Source: Planctomycetota bacterium (GTDB lineage: Bacteria; Planctomycetota; UBA1135; UBA2386). Taken from it: a DNA stretch of 64,000 nt. Positions within the stretch are counted from its first letter, which is position 1, and the number at the start of each line of letters is the position of its first letter. The notes below the pieces were generated by a model that worked only from the letters and a program-made list of their open reading frames with translations, was not told where the DNA came from and did not search any database. Positions 19,312 to 25,404 of this stretch are shown piece by piece. The stretch covers positions 7,392,001 through 7,456,000 of the forward strand of contig OZ245006.1 of NCBI GenBank assembly GCA_965223545.1. The letters are read 5' to 3'. The position numbers and the translations under genes were made by a program.

Positions 19312-19481
19312 CGATTCGTCTTTCAGTTGGGGACAGTCCCCCAGGATTTGATCCTCATCTGTGTCTCCGCGCCGCAAGTCTTGCCAGCGACAATCGCGAG
19401 AACTCGGCCGGCCGCGTGCAAATCCGGCGCTGGAGGAGGTCTTTCTGCGGGAAGTTCCGGACGTGGCGGCGGGTGGACGTC

Positions 19482-21707
19482 TCAGCGCCCGGCCTCCGCC
19501 TGGGCTGCCGCCGGCAGCTCCAAGCGAACCTCGGCGCACCACATGCCGACCGGGTCTCCGCGTTCGGTCAACGTGCGCGCCAGCACCGACGGCTGCCTTG
19601 CCAGCACTCCATCGAACAGCACGCGCGCGCGGTGACGGACCACGACGGGGCGATCGAGATCGAGCATCGCGTCGTCCAAGCGAACGCTGACGGAAGCGAC
19701 ACCGGTGGCTTCGAGAATCGCGATCTCCTGTCCGCGGCGCTCGACGACGAGCCGGCTGCCCGCGACGGGCTCATCCACCGACAGCCAGTAGAAGCGGCGG
19801 TGCGTGCGGCGCCCCTGCTGCCAAACCACGCGCGTCGGCCGCAGCTCTCGACGGCGCTCGGCCATCCAGGGCAATGCAGTCGCGTCGTCGCCGTCCATCC
19901 AGTGGCCCTTGCCCGCGTGGATCTCGACCCAGTGGTCGTATCCCTCGGGATCGGCGGCACGCAGCTGCGCCAGCTGGTCGCGCCACTGCGCCGCCACCGC
20001 GTTGCGCTTGTAGGCGCTGTCGTCGGCGCCCATGTGCAGAGTGAAGGCCGTGTTGCGCAAGGACGCGGGCCGGGCGTCGTTGGGATGGCCGGCCATCATC
20101 GCTGCCGCGGCCCAGCGATCGGCCATGCGCGGCGCCAGCTGGTAGACGCCGTCGCCGCCCGCCGAGTAGCCCATCAGATAGACGCGGTCGGGGTCGACGC
20201 CGTGCAGGGCGACCATGTTCTCGATCAAGCGGTCGAACAGGACGTCGATGTGGTCGCGGTGCCAGAGGTTCCAGGTGTCGGTCGGTGCGCGGGGCGCGAC
20301 GTAGATGCCTTCGGGCGGGGCGTACAGCTTCTGTTGGTTGGCCCACTGGCGGTCGTTCACCGCCGCCGGAGCGCCGCCGCCACCGTGCAGGGACAGCCAC
20401 AGGCTGCGCCCGTTGGGTCCGGGCTCGCCGCGCGTGGTGAACCAGAACGGCATCCGGTGCTCGCCGTGCGTCAGCGCGCCGGCCTCCATCTCGGCCTGGC
20501 GCTCGCGCCGCAGCCGCGCGACGTGGTCGGTCCACAGCGACTCCTTCTCGGTCTCGGCCTCGGCGCGCGTCAGCCCGGGTTTCAGCCGCAACGCGACCAG
20601 CTGTTGGTCCGACTCGACGACCACGGTCTGCGCCGCGGCCACGCCCGGACCGCTCGCCTCGATCATGACCTCTGCGCCGAGCGGCAGCGTCGTCTCGACG
20701 TGGTCGTTGGCGTCGAATCGCTCGTCCTTGCTCTCGCCGGCGAACAGCAGACGGCCGTCGCCGGCGGAGTGCACGGTCACCGGTACCCGGCGGCGGCGCC
20801 CGTCCGCCGGGTCGGTGACGACCACGCGCACCCGCGCGTGACCGTCGGCAACCGCCGCCGCGTCCCTGGTGTAGCGCTCGGTGACGTTGATTCCGTACAC
20901 CTCGCTGGCGCCGCGCCGCCACACCAGGGGGAAGCGCTGCGGCGTCGGCACGTAGCTCGTGGCGAAGATCCCGTAGCGCTCGGAGTCGGCGCGCGCGTCG
21001 GCGGCGCGGCTGACGAACCACGCGCGGTCGAGTTCGTCGCCGGTCGGTTCCGCCGCGCCGGTGAAGTGCCAGCCACGGTCCCAGATCTCCACCCAGGAGT
21101 GGTTGCCGCTGTCGTCCGACCACCGCGGCGTGCCGACGAAGCGCGCCGGAACGCCGACCGCGCGGCAGGCGCTGATCAGCAGCACCGACAGACCGGTGCA
21201 GGATGCCATGCCGGCTTCGATCGATTCGTACGGACTCTGGTCGGCCTTCGGCCGTTTCGTCGAGTAGTGCACGCCGAGCTCGTCGAAGATCCGCTGGTTG
21301 AGCAGCACGGCCGCGGCGGCCGGCGTCTCGGCCTCGGCGACCAGCGGGTGAAAGCGCTCGTAGAAGTCGCGGCGCCAGGCGTCGCGCCGCTCGCCGATGT
21401 TGGCGTAGGGCAGCACGTACTCGAAGAAGTAACGCTCGGGCACCTCGTCGGACCACGGCGCCGCCCGCCACGCGCGGTAGGCGAACTGCACGTGCTCGAC
21501 GAGGAAGTCCGCGGTGAGCGTGCGCAGGTCGGTCTCCGGCATGTGCCGCAGCAAGAACTCGAGCCCGGGGCGCTCGTCATCGGCGACGCGCTCCAGCGCC
21601 GCGCGCAGCGCGGGGAGGTTGTCACCGGCGCGCTCGAGGGTCTGCTCGAGCGCGGTGGGGGACTGCGGCAGGGCGAGCGCGAGCGCGGTGAGGCTGAGCG
21701 GAAGCAT
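19482..21707 (-). CDS. Secreted transglutaminase-like / alpha-beta hydrolase (PHB-depolymerase-like) fusion
   Basis: YVLPY, ASCTG...GVPAR..GNHSWVE (TGase Cys/His); LHGGG, GYSAGG, GADD, GKGHW (hydrolase triad). Confidence 0.8.
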   Translation of the reverse strand: MLPLSLTALALALPQSPTALEQTLERAGDNLPALRAALERVADDERPGLEFLLRHMPETDLRTLTADFLVEHVQFAYRAWRAAPWSDEVPERYFFEYVLPYANIGERRDAWRRDFYERFHPLVAEAETPAAAAVLLNQRIFDELGVHYSTKRPKADQSPYESIEAGMASCTGLSVLLISACRAVGVPARFVGTPRWSDDSGNHSWVEIWDRGWHFTGAAEPTGDELDRAWFVSRAADARADSERYGIFATSYVPTPQRFPLVWRRGASEVYGINVTERYTRDAAAVADGHARVRVVVTDPADGRRRRVPVTVHSAGDGRLLFAGESKDERFDANDHVETTLPLGAEVMIEASGPGVAAAQTVVVESDQQLVALRLKPGLTRAEAETEKESLWTDHVARLRRERQAEMEAGALTHGEHRMPFWFTTRGEPGPNGRSLWLSLHGGGGAPAAVNDRQWANQQKLYAPPEGIYVAPRAPTDTWNLWHRDHIDVLFDRLIENMVALHGVDPDRVYLMGYSAGGDGVYQLAPRMADRWAAAAMMAGHPNDARPASLRNTAFTLHMGADDSAYKRNAVAAQWRDQLAQLRAADPEGYDHWVEIHAGKGHWMDGDDATALPWMAERRRELRPTRVVWQQGRRTHRRFYWLSVDEPVAGSRLVVERRGQEIAILEATGVASVSVRLDDAMLDLDRPVVVRHRARVLFDGVLARQPSVLARTLTERGDPVGMWCAEVRLELPAAAQAEAGR

Positions 21708-21789
21708 GCGGGACCGAGGATACCCGAGGCTCGGATGCGTCCGTCGCTCCGCTCGGCTATCTTGGCGCGCTGTCGTCTCGCGATCGCCC

Positions 21790-22140
21790 ATGGATGCACA
21801 AGACCTGGACCAACCCGTCGTAATCGCCGAGGGCAGCGCGCCCGAGATGGGGCGGCTCTGCGGCTTGCTGCGCGCGCAGTCGATCGCGGCGGCGCTGGTG
21901 CCCTCGAGGCGCGGATCGGGTTGAGGCACACGGGCCGGGCTCGCGGTCGCGGGCTCGTCGGCGGCCGAGGCTCTGCAGTGCCTGCGCAGCGACGAGCAGC
22001 GTGGAATGTCCGAGATCGAGCGCCTCGCCTCGGAGGTCAACGTCGACTTCGACGCCGACGAGGCGGTGTGTCCGGCGTGCGCGACGATTTTCTCGACCGC
22101 GCTGCGCCGCTGCCCCGAGTGCGACCTCAACTTCGGCTGA
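21790..22140 (+). CDS. Putative zinc-ribbon selenoprotein (in-frame TGA at 21922-21924, codon 45)
   Basis: Read-through gives 116 aa, MDAQ...PSRRGSG-U-GTRAGLAV...CPAC...CPECDLNFG. Coding-like GC3 on both sides of the TGA, and a SECIS-like hairpin follows. Confidence 0.7.
21936..21957 (+). promoter_or_regulatory. Candidate bacterial SECIS hairpin
   Basis: Stem CGGGCUCGC/GCGGGCUCG with apical loop GGUC, which starts 20 nt after the UGA. Confidence 0.6.
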
Positions 22141-22160
22141 GCGTTCGGGGGCCGAGAGTC

Positions 22161-23528
22161 TTAGCGCGGCGACGACATTCCCGAAGGCCGGTTGCCTGCC
22201 GGAGTTCGATCCCGCAACTCCCGGGCGCTGAGCTGGTCCTTCGCGATCGCCGCGCGCAAACCCCATGGACTCTTGTGCACTCGCGCCGCCAACACCCAGG
22301 TGATCGCGAAGCCGGCGAGGTAGGACAGAGCCGTGGCCTGCGCCGCGCCGACGATCCCCATGCGCGGGATCAGCACGGCGTTGGCGCCGATGTTGATCGC
22401 GGCGATCAGCATCGAGGTCAGCGACAGCAGATGGGTCTTGCGCTCGTAGAACAGGTAGCCGCTGCGCATCTTGTACATGCCGTTGAAGGCAAGGCCGAGT
22501 CCGACCCAGAGCACACAATCGGCGCCGCCGCGGAAGTCCGCGCCGATGAACCACTGATAGATCCACGGCACGACCGCCGCCAGCAGCAGGGCGGCGCCGA
22601 CGATGGCGAGGTCGTAGGCGTAGATGATCAGTACGATGCGCCGATTCTGCTCGGCATCCCGGCGGCGGATCTGCTCGCAGAACCATGGCAGCCAGCCGCG
22701 GTGGAAGGAGTCTTGCAGCAGCCCGATCACCAGGCCGATCTGCGCGGCGACCACGAACACCCCGGTCTGCTGCGAGCCGAGCAGGTTCTCGACCAGCACG
22801 CGGTCGGCGGTGCTGACCGCGAGGCCGGCCAGCGCGACCGGCAGCAGCGGCACGCCGAAGCCGAGGGCGTGGCGCATGGCGGCCGGGTCCGGCCGCCGGC
22901 GCAGGAATCCCAAGCGCTGCAGGATGCCGAGGCCCAGGGCGCAGAAGATCGCGTAGGTCGTCAGCTGCGCGACGACCCGTCCCTGCCAGCCCGTGGTGAA
23001 GCCGACGACGAGCAGCAGAGTCAGCGCCGCGTTGCAGATCGCGATGCCGATCTGGAACGCCGCGTAGCGCGTGGGCTGCACGCGCACTTGCCAGATCGCC
23101 AGCACGATGCGCGTGATCACCTGGGCGCTCGCGCACCACACGACCAACCACAGCCAGTCGGCCGTGATCTTGGTCCAGCGCTCGATCGCCGGCGCGGCCA
23201 GCCACAGGGCGGCGGCCACCAACGCCGTGCCGGCCGCCCAAAGCCAGACGCAGCTGCCGACGTAGGCGGGGAAGTCGCACTGCTCGCGGTCGTAGTAGCG
23301 CCGGGCGATCGCGTTCTGCACGCTCACCCCCGCGAAGGTCGCCGCCAAGCCGATCAGCACTTGGAACATGGCGACCGCCGCCATGTCCTCGGTGGTGAGG
23401 CAACGCGTCAGCACCGGCAGCAGCAGGAACGGCACCGCCGCGGCGATCACGTTGCTCGCGGTGTACACCCCGACGGTCTTCGAGAACCGAGAGGTCGCCC
23501 ACTGCAGCAGTACTTGTCGGTGGCTCAC
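22161..23528 (-). CDS. Oligosaccharide flippase (Wzx/MOP family)
   Basis: PFLLLPVLTR, many TM helices, FGVPL, DRVL, LIPRMGIVGAAQAT. Confidence 0.85.
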   Translation of the reverse strand: MSHRQVLLQWATSRFSKTVGVYTASNVIAAAVPFLLLPVLTRCLTTEDMAAVAMFQVLIGLAATFAGVSVQNAIARRYYDREQCDFPAYVGSCVWLWAAGTALVAAALWLAAPAIERWTKITADWLWLVVWCASAQVITRIVLAIWQVRVQPTRYAAFQIGIAICNAALTLLLVVGFTTGWQGRVVAQLTTYAIFCALGLGILQRLGFLRRRPDPAAMRHALGFGVPLLPVALAGLAVSTADRVLVENLLGSQQTGVFVVAAQIGLVIGLLQDSFHRGWLPWFCEQIRRRDAEQNRRIVLIIYAYDLAIVGAALLLAAVVPWIYQWFIGADFRGGADCVLWVGLGLAFNGMYKMRSGYLFYERKTHLLSLTSMLIAAINIGANAVLIPRMGIVGAAQATALSYLAGFAITWVLAARVHKSPWGLRAAIAKDQLSARELRDRTPAGNRPSGMSSPR

Positions 23529-23618
23529 GATCGGGCGGGGGGATCCCGCTGGTTCATCGGCCGAGGCAGGCGCCCCGGTGTAGCCAATCCGCCCCCGCGA
23601 TGGGCAGTTCGCGCGATC

Positions 23619-24056
23619 CTAGTCCGCTTCCGCCACCTCGAGCAGAGCATCGAGCGCGCCCGGGATCGTCACCGCCCGCATCCGCCCACCGTCCGCGTCC
23701 TTGCGCACGCACACCGCCGTCATCGTGCCCTGCGCAGTGCGCCGCGGGCCATCCTCACCGGCAACCGTGAAGTCGATCTCGTAGGTCACCGACGTGCGCC
23801 GCTTCGCGCGCACGCGCAAGCGCAGCTCGACCTCGTCCTCGTAGTGCAGTGGTGCCTCGTAGTGGCAGCTGGCGCTGCCGCGCGCCCAACCGACGAAGCC
23901 GTCGCCGTCGGCGTGGTGCACGCGGTGGCCGAGGGAGCGGAAGAAGGCGTGCTCGACCTCTTCCATGTAGCGGAAGTAGTTGGAGAAGTGCAGGATGCCG
24001 GCCATGTCGGTCTCGGCGAACTCGACGCGGCGGCGCATGGTGAACTCGGTCGGCAC
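23619..24056 (-). CDS. Hot-dog fold acyl-CoA thioesterase (YbgC/4HBT-like)
   Basis: RVEFAETDMAGILHFSNYFRYME signature. Confidence 0.9.
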   Translation of the reverse strand: MPTEFTMRRRVEFAETDMAGILHFSNYFRYMEEVEHAFFRSLGHRVHHADGDGFVGWARGSASCHYEAPLHYEDEVELRLRVRAKRRTSVTYEIDFTVAGEDGPRRTAQGTMTAVCVRKDADGGRMRAVTIPGALDALLEVAEAD

Positions 24057-24063
24057 GGCGGGG

Positions 24064-25404
24064 TCAGGCGTACCGCGCGTTCCGGTGCCGGTCGAGGAAG
24101 AAGCCCTGGAGTAGCGGATCCACCTGCAGCAGGCCCTGCCGGGTCAGCACCACCGCGCCCTCTTCGAGCTCGAGATGACCGCGGCTCTGGTAGTCGCGCA
24201 GCACACCGGCGAAGCGCTGCTGGGGGTCGACCCCGAACTTGTCGACGAACGGCCGGGTCTCGACGCGGCCCAGCTTCAGCTGCAGCACGAACTCGCGGAT
24301 CATCCGTTCTTCGTCGGTGAGCTGCAGGGCGCGGCGCAGCGGGAACGCGCCGGCCTCGACCGCTTGCAGGTAGTCGTCGAGGTGGTGCGCGTTCTGCACG
24401 TGGAAGCCGCCGAGGTGCGAGAACGAGGCGACGCCGATGCCGAGCATGTCGGCGCCGTGCCACAGCGCGTCGCGGTAGCGGAAGTGGACCTCGTCGCCGC
24501 GCACGGCCGTGTAGGCGCTGCCGATGCGATAGCCGTCGCGCTCCAAGGCGGCGAACGCTTCGCCGACCCAGCGGCGCTTGGTCGGCCAGTCCGCCACCGG
24601 CGCGACCTGTTGGCCGCCGTCGCGCATGCGCCGGTAGAGCGTCGTGTTGTACGGCACCTCCATCTGGTAGATGGTGATGCTCTCCGGCGCCAGCGCGCGG
24701 GCGCGCTCGACGCTGCGCGTCCAACCTTCATCCGACTCGCCGACCATGCCGGCGATCAGGTCGAGATTGCGCTGGTCGAAGCCCGCCTCGCCGGCCCACC
24801 CATAGGCGCGATCGATCTCGGCGGCGCGGTGGGCGCGGTTGTTGAGCGCCAGCAGCTCCGCATCGAAGCTCTCCACGCCCAGGCTGAGGCGGGTGACGCC
24901 GAGCTCGGCCAAGGCGTGCACCTTGCGCTCCTGCAAGGTCCCGGGTTCGCACTCGAAGGTCACTTCGCGCACCGCGTCCCACGGCATCAGCGCGCGCAGC
25001 TGCTCGAACAGCGAGCGCAGCTGGTCGACCGACAGATACGACGGCGTGCCGCCGCCGAAGTAGACGAACTCCGGCGGCCGGTCGCGCAGGTAGGGGGTCG
25101 CCGCCAGCAGGCGCAGCTCGGCGACCAAGGCGTCGACGTAGCGGTGGACGCGCGCCGAGTCGTTGTCGGTATAGACCCGGAAGTAGCAAAAATCGCAGCG
25201 CTTGCGGCAGAACGGGATGTGGACGTAGAGGCCGAACGGCGGCGGCTTCTCCGGCGCCAGCGCGAGCCGTTGGGTGGCCGCCGGCAGGGTTTCGGCGCTC
25301 CACGCCGAGAACGGCGGGTAGTTGGCGACGAAGTAGTTGCCGGCGGCGGTGGCGTCGGGCCGCGGCTGGGCCGTGTCGTGGTCGTTTTGGCTGGCTTCGG
25401 ACAT
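24064..25404 (-). CDS. HemN/HemW-like radical SAM enzyme (coproporphyrinogen III oxidase-like family)
   Basis: YVHIPFCRKRCDFC, FGGGTPS, RLSLGVESF, DLIAG, HemN_C-like end; atypical N-terminus GNYFVANYPPF. Confidence 0.88.
   Translation of the reverse strand: MSEASQNDHDTAQPRPDATAAGNYFVANYPPFSAWSAETLPAATQRLALAPEKPPPFGLYVHIPFCRKRCDFCYFRVYTDNDSARVHRYVDALVAELRLLAATPYLRDRPPEFVYFGGGTPSYLSVDQLRSLFEQLRALMPWDAVREVTFECEPGTLQERKVHALAELGVTRLSLGVESFDAELLALNNRAHRAAEIDRAYGWAGEAGFDQRNLDLIAGMVGESDEGWTRSVERARALAPESITIYQMEVPYNTTLYRRMRDGGQQVAPVADWPTKRRWVGEAFAALERDGYRIGSAYTAVRGDEVHFRYRDALWHGADMLGIGVASFSHLGGFHVQNAHHLDDYLQAVEAGAFPLRRALQLTDEERMIREFVLQLKLGRVETRPFVDKFGVDPQQRFAGVLRDYQSRGHLELEEGAVVLTRQGLLQVDPLLQGFFLDRHRNARYA

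Follow-up and report, generated by a model that had tools for sequence, protein, structure and literature searches.

Does the TGA codon at positions 21922-21924 end a short open reading frame, or is it read as selenocysteine (Sec) within one longer gene? The locus at 21790-22140 raises this question on the plus strand of the window, by which we mean the whole stretch of 64,000 nucleotides that was analysed. The first-pass annotation had proposed a 116-residue Sec protein here, and its proposal is supported by conservation of the TGA, by homologs with Cys at the same position, by constraint on a hairpin downstream and by the presence of Sec machinery in the genome. We therefore consider it very probable that 21790-22140 is a single gene, in which the TGA at codon 45 would be read as Sec under the direction of a hairpin with a GGUC loop. 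The features on which the argument draws are as follows.

21790-22140, plus strand: full coding sequence, 116 codons and a stop, with TGA codon 45 predicted to be read as Sec
21838-21993, plus strand: residues 17-68, the part of the N-terminal domain aligned with PF11823 (hhalign, AlphaFold2)
21922-21924, plus strand: in-frame TGA, predicted Sec codon (U45), from comparison of the column with relatives and with PF11823
21936-21957, plus strand: SECIS-like hairpin, 9 pairs here, from folding and comparison with relatives
21939-21944 paired with 21949-21954, plus strand: 6-pair core conserved in relatives
21945-21948, plus strand: apical loop GGUC, invariant in 36 of 36 aligned sequences
22069-22122, plus strand: C-terminal Cys4 zinc ribbon, CPAC-x10-CPEC, from invariance of the Cys residues and Pfam matches
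22138-22140, plus strand: final stop TGA, not followed by a hairpin of this type

Reading frame, gene context and Sec machinery

The frame opens with the ATG at 21790, meets the TGA at codon 45 in the context G-S-G-U-G, and continues for 71 sense codons to the TGA at 22138-22140. The fraction of G or C at third positions (GC3) was 0.84 upstream of the internal TGA and 0.92 downstream of it, and homologs of the protein stop at the equivalent point, after CG-L-x-F-G. The gene takes up the gap that separates two genes of the minus strand, a transglutaminase-like gene upstream with a probable start at 21707, as read from the sequence, and a Polysacc_synt flippase gene downstream with its stop at 22161. 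The coordinates, the 71 codons, the GC3 bias and the filling of the gap had all been claimed for the read-through frame, and each is present in the sequence. The list of open reading frames holds one that stops at 21924 and a separate one of 44 amino acids from the ATG at 22006.

A scan for promoters and terminators over 21600-22300 found none, and among the sequencing runs checked no RNA run holding the locus was listed. No family was common to the 67 ORFs that flank the gene at 30 loci; the neighbours are not conserved and so gave no clue to function. In contigs from two sequencing runs on two samples, the TGA is unchanged and 21700-22200 is identical to the assembly, although these runs may be the source of the assembly; the TGA lies outside the coverage of runs with small shares.

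Two observations concern the surrounding DNA. Several unrelated contigs, from runs X1 and X3, match about 45 bases at 22148-22194 (the spacer together with the flippase gene's 3′ end) with 4-7 differences; this stretch may be a short element, either conserved or repeated. Long open frames such as 19416-24320 on the plus strand (1634 amino acids) overlap real genes on the opposite strand, and were rejected as genes since they are a usual artefact of DNA with 70% G+C.

The genome that contains the window (8.1 Mb in 2 contigs) encodes a complete Sec machinery. We found selB (318.2 bits), selD (345.8 bits), selA adjoining selD (464.3 bits) and a tRNA-Sec (74.2 bits), which ARAGORN called as tRNA-SeC with anticodon TCA; the presence of these four genes had been set out beforehand as a check on the Sec reading. 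Of 61 genomes searched for selA, the window's own and those of 60 relatives, 60 gave a match; the one that did not is 73% complete. The selD gene carries one in-frame TGA, in the context G-G-G-U-A-A-K, and is therefore itself a predicted selenoprotein gene.

The selD region (G000:C1:1264004-1266329, loci L001 and L004) lies outside the window, directly beside selA, and the hairpin that follows its TGA has the loop CGGGC, unlike the GGUC of the gene at 21790-22140. Another observation comes from genome G040, where an open stretch of 140 amino acids stands beside that genome's copy of the gene (L045, 1851-2270, minus strand). It matches only positions 115-235 of Pfam T4_deiodinase (E 5.9e-18), and may be the C-terminal part of another selenoprotein gene interrupted by TGA.

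Codon 45 and the downstream hairpin in relatives

We compared the read-through protein with the same 61 genomes, and obtained matches in 33, of which 26 have one in-frame TGA and 7 have TGG at the position of codon 45. The TGA stands 15 nt before the core of the hairpin in 24 of the 26, and one codon further away in the other 2. Across the whole taxonomic family, matches were present in 73 of 91 genomes, with 54 TGA, 18 TGG and 1 TGC; for TGG and TGC the codon was taken from the DNA itself, and one of 40 loci was unparsable. In the TGG and TGC forms a single ORF runs through without interruption. Conservation of the protein extends to either side of codon 45, and homologs align across both halves.

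Searched through a word index, the read-through protein had no match at E<=1e-3 among proteins of 64-205 amino acids, which reflects a limit of that kind of index; a profile of the 33 homologs, searched later against 1.84 billion representatives, gave 842 matches at E<=1e-3 and 245 at E<=1e-10. Among the best 150 of the 842, 99 cover the Sec column, with Cys in 65, Trp in 3 and other residues in 31. A further 46 of the best 150 are C-terminal fragments of 46-89 amino acids, many of which start at or near WLAVA, and these are probably truncated gene calls of TGA forms. Such fragments, along with the 44-residue ORF from 22006, bear out the expectation that gene callers would split or truncate this gene. 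In six of the representatives (P0041, P0056, P0097, P0103, P0123 and P0139) the module lies within longer proteins of 248-1555 amino acids, with several matched stretches each, and these may be fused or repeated forms.

Many relatives have a nearby Cys in the loop, giving a CxxxU-type arrangement. The window protein is without this second Cys, and a redox pair of two residues is therefore not general. An apparent conversion of Sec to Cys was seen between two members of the same genus, L250 (G278) and L258 (G277). The Cys form of this pair is identical to the TGA form in 85 of 114 residues and has gained a CxxxC loop (C-N-T-G-C). It keeps L-A-V-A, the residues encoded by the hairpin, while the 3′ arm is broken, with GCC GAC for GCG AGC; this comparison of hairpin loss with L-A-V-A kept rests on one sequence. 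The hairpin was absent from all six Cys forms whose DNA was examined.

In the window the hairpin reads CGGGCUCGC-GGUC-GCGGGCUCG, with 9 pairs of which two are G-U. It begins 11 nt past the UGA, with a separation of 20 nt between the UGA and the loop; the length of the stem, the loop and both spacings are as the first-pass annotation had given them. Among the family sequences displayed, the spacing from UGA to loop is 20 nt in all except two, where it is 23 nt. Folding of this single sequence was uninformative: the z score against shuffled sequences was 0.10, with 98 of 200 shuffles as good, and in a second run -1.13, with 26 of 200. The fold of the window sequence alone is thus no better than chance, and is no proof of a hairpin in DNA of 70% G+C. 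Searches of Rfam gave no match for the whole window at gathering thresholds, and at E<=10 on 21880-22010 the sole row was an irrelevant archaeal sRNA. The 12-nt core is present in 50 copies in the genome, and only the copy at this locus has a TGA 18 nt upstream; a genome-wide repeat linked to TGA was therefore rejected.

It is only the comparison with relatives that makes the hairpin more than a chance fold. In the 33 homologs from the protein search, the codons for L-A-V-A are CTC (33/33), GCG (30/30), GTC (33/33) and GCG (33/33), and the three changes from A to V within these columns yield a G-U pair. At each of the other conserved columns for Leu, Ala, Val, Pro and Gly, 2-4 codons are in use. 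When 36 sequences were aligned, 93.7% of the cells of a 7-pair stem were paired, compared to 26-46% in slid controls; four pairs were changed on both sides, and none of 500 shuffles attained the observed values on any of five measures. A relative from another taxonomic family has the stem CUCGU/ACGAG, with amino-acid changes in both arms, and another relative has CUGGC/GCCAG by way of two synonymous changes. Of 79 distinct sequences, 78 preserve pair 5 of the stem, some of them as U-A, A-U or C-G variants. The DNA pattern scan that supplied 46 of these 79 required the hairpin core, so that only the outer pairs are informative in those 46, and it is silent on forms without the core.

Taken together, the invariant codons and the compensatory changes indicate a covarying hairpin under constraint at the RNA level. 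A SECIS element just 3′ of the UGA had been suggested from the window sequence, and the hairpin has the stem-loop position, the covariation and the G/U-containing loop of such an element; we predict it to be of SECIS type. In the mechanism that we propose, the hairpin would be bound by SelB and its Sec-tRNA(Sec) at the time that the UGA stands in the ribosome, and Sec would be inserted in competition with RF2. The product would have 116 residues, comprising a Se_S_carrier-like domain with Sec on the β2-β3 loop and a Cys4 zinc ribbon.

Domains, predicted structure and family

The C-terminal zinc ribbon noted at the outset is present as CPAC-x10-CPEC, and its four Cys residues (C94, C97, C108 and C111) occur without exception in 33 of 33 sequences. 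The Pfam families Zn_ribbon_3 and DZR each match 24 of the 33 members; searches with the window protein and its halves gave sub-threshold zinc ribbons only. We modelled the protein by AlphaFold2 with the 33-sequence alignment, and the mean pLDDT was 88.1. The order of elements in the model is β1 (9-16), α1 (17-29), β2 (34-38), the loop with U45, β3 (48-54), α2 (55-71), α3 (75-82) and the ribbon, which places U45 in the β2-β3 loop of a β-α-β-β-α domain. Foldseek gave no match in the PDB at E<=1e-3, with weak similarity to PII-like, ACT and PrgK-type folds only. Sequence searches of the PDB with the alignment of 33 homologs, and with an alignment of 19 members of PF11823, found nothing significant.

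The HMM of PF11823 (Se_S_carrier, DUF3343) gave sub-threshold matches in 8 of the 33 members and no match for the window's own protein. Four N-terminal domains scored 14-16 bits against the cut-off of 25, with the Sec near profile position 39. When 19 PF11823 members from the phylum were aligned, the sole invariant residues were P32 and C39, both within PVPRxLSSDCG. A comparison of the 33 homologs with these 19 members by hhalign gave a probability of 85.1% (E 6.1e-6) over 52 columns, and the Sec/Cys column was aligned with the invariant C39. These results suggest that the N-terminal domain is remotely like PF11823, with Sec placed on the invariant Cys of that family.

Lin et al. (2015, PMC5322559) proposed that DUF3343, centred on a highly conserved Cys, is a chaperone in the trafficking of Se or S. 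We tentatively suggest, at somewhat less than even confidence, that the window protein may be a small selenol-based carrier or relay of S or Se, or else a redox protein, in which the ribbon would act as a structural or docking module.

The suspicion that the family might already be known was correct. The NCBIfam model NF049953.1, ‘zinc ribbon-containing (seleno)protein DG’, matches residues 4-116 of the window protein at profile positions 54-172 of 172 (E 1.2e-15), with a score of 57.9 bits that lies below the curated cut-off of 130. All 33 aligned homologs match this model (best E-value 2e-24), and its cut-off was reached in none of 201 genomes sampled from the phylum. ‘Hypothetical protein DG’ was predicted as a selenoprotein in two Desulfosediminicola species in the work on deep-Sep (mSystems 2025, PMC12013277), where it is described as having no conserved domain and as having both Cys-containing and TGA-containing homologs. 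A review of 2026 (PMC13188914) lists protein DG with NF049953 and the motif GUxG. We found no literature under the name ‘selenoprotein DG’. Beyond what these sources give, the present analysis adds the alignment of the N-terminal domain with PF11823 and the retention of the hairpin in 18 of 18 relatives with a Trp codon.

Tryptophan-codon relatives, rival readings and known systems

The TGA and TGG forms are intermixed. One genus (g34) has 9 TGA and 3 TGG forms and another (g35) has 2 of each, and on a tree of 79 sequences at least five switches are needed, of which strongly supported branches force at least two. The sequence CTCGCGGTCGCG is kept exactly in all 18 TGG forms. In the 7 TGG forms that were first found, 23 of the 31 remaining columns whose residue is invariant varied synonymously but none of the 4 hairpin columns did, a difference expected by chance about once in 100 by our own estimate. 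A tRNA-Sec with the anticodon TCA (UCA in RNA) was present in 5 of the 7 TGG-form genomes searched, and we rejected on this ground a tRNA-Sec with a CCA anticodon that would serve the TGG forms. The other two genomes (69% and 82% complete) gave no tRNA-Sec match at the family cut-off.

The first-pass annotation had counted Trp at this position in homologs against the Sec reading. Trp codons were indeed found, in 18 of the 73 matches within the taxonomic family, and an exchange of Sec with Trp differs from the customary one with Cys. The Sec reading is nevertheless not overturned, because Cys is common in homologs, as had been looked for alongside TGA at codon 45, and because the Trp forms keep the predicted SECIS.

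Xu et al. (NAR 2013, PMC3834832) showed in E. coli that the native tRNA-Sec can decode a UGG that stands ahead of a SECIS, giving a mixture of Sec and Trp with no truncation; a recombinant rat enzyme was produced, and a good yield needed overexpressed selA, selB and selC. The presence of the hairpin in 18 of 18 Trp forms and in none of 6 Cys forms would fit such wobble decoding of UGG as Sec and Trp. If the SECIS stays selected while the codon toggles between UGA and UGG, then the UGG forms would be the first natural genes in which SelB and an ordinary tRNA-Sec(UCA) place Sec at a Trp codon by wobble, yielding a Sec/Trp mixture without truncation in a protein that would be a Sec-bearing cousin of DUF3343. 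We hold this bolder reading to be possible but rather unlikely. Alternatively, the TGG forms could be frequent, recent transitions from TGA to TGG, whose hairpins have not yet decayed.

The same alternation bears on a rival account of the TGA itself, according to which tRNA-Trp, or some other near-cognate tRNA, reads through the UGA at a low level and the hairpin acts as a stimulator. On this account the TGA and TGG forms would yield one and the same Trp protein in differing amounts, and both the switching of the two codons among close relatives, even in one genus, and the hairpin of the TGG forms are in keeping with this. However, Cys and not Trp is the commonest residue at the column among the best-150 matches that cover it, the column is aligned with the invariant Cys of PF11823, and selA is almost always present in these genomes. 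To our knowledge, no bacterial hairpin stimulates Trp read-through in such a manner. The invariant GGUC loop is, moreover, that of the E. coli SECIS of PMC3834832. We regard Trp read-through as improbable.

Less probable still is that the locus is a pseudogene, or two small genes encoding a 44-residue N-terminal peptide and a C-terminal zinc-ribbon protein that starts, for example, at the ATG at 22006. Gene callers do yield such pieces, both in the window and among the C-terminal fragments in the best 150 representatives. Yet the protein sequence of residues 46-72, between the TGA and that ATG, is conserved, this stretch offers no conserved start codon, the AlphaFold2 model folds the whole chain as one unit with β3 directly after the TGA, and a private nonsense mutation cannot explain the same TGA in 54 genomes. 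Protein conservation before and after the codon, and the single ORFs of the TGG and TGC relatives, thus defeat both the pseudogene and the two-gene reading. An error of sequencing or assembly, for which nothing speaks except that the sequence comes from an assembly, has a negligible probability: the same TGA occurs in dozens of independently assembled genomes, and the contigs of the two runs are identical here, even if they may be the assembly's source.

The reading of 21790-22140 as one Sec-encoding gene has consequences at several levels. The short form of the protein scores below the curated cut-off of NCBI and its gene is split by gene callers, and the selenoproteomes of the phylum would therefore be undercounted. 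The predicted placement of Sec on the invariant Cys of DUF3343/Se_S_carrier provides a first testable hypothesis, that of a chalcogen carrier or relay, for a family in which no conserved domain had been described. Of all the features, the alternation of UGA and UGG beside a SECIS that is kept most deserves an experiment. It is the configuration that gives Sec/Trp mixtures in engineered E. coli (PMC3834832), and natural decoding of this kind, if true, would amount to recoding of a sense codon to Sec without a changed tRNA.

Among known systems, the hairpin resembles the fdhF-type SECIS of E. coli in lying inside the ORF just 3′ of the UGA and in its GGUC apical loop. Its stem differs in sequence and is shorter in most relatives (the 6-pair conserved core), and no bulged U was observed in it, whereas a bulged U in the stem is important in fdhF. 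The E. coli SECIS is printed in PMC3834832 as ggttgcaggtctgcacc, with GGTC at its centre. The natural TGG relatives resemble the engineered UGG system described in that paper in having UGG at the normal distance before an intact SECIS-type hairpin. In contrast to the engineered system, the configuration here is a natural one, and it is found in relatives and not in the window's TGA gene; a search of the literature at the level of titles and abstracts found no natural gene with UGG and a SECIS.

PF11823 shares with the window protein a small β-α-β-β-α domain, and its single invariant Cys aligns with the Sec/Cys column. Members of PF11823, unlike the window protein, consist of a single domain without a zinc ribbon, and all 19 that were aligned have Cys, in matches without an in-frame stop codon. 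Their genes have been reported near yedF and Sec-lyase genes (PMC5322559), whereas the window gene has no conserved neighbours.

The closest likeness is to NF049953, with which the window protein shares Sec or Cys in a Gly-rich loop ahead of a hydrophobic strand, and a C-terminal CxxC...CxxC ribbon. The long forms of that family (162-196 residues) have in addition an N-terminal zinc ribbon (CPxC...CxxC) and a CxxGC(C)G loop. In the window protein the first ~50 profile positions, which correspond to the N-terminal ribbon, are missing, and the frame upstream overlaps the neighbouring gene. U45 aligns with the Cys of the long forms (GCCG, GKC), and its motif is G-U-G-T, to be set beside the GUxG listed for the family in the review (PMC13188914). 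The family was named from Desulfosediminicola (PMC12013277), while many relatives of the window gene come from records of Planctomycetota, including Rohdeia mirabilis Pla163. The extra N-terminal ribbon of the long forms is absent here, and the gene at 21790-22140 is therefore a short relative of NF049953 that scores below its threshold, and so a variant of a family that was predicted in 2025.
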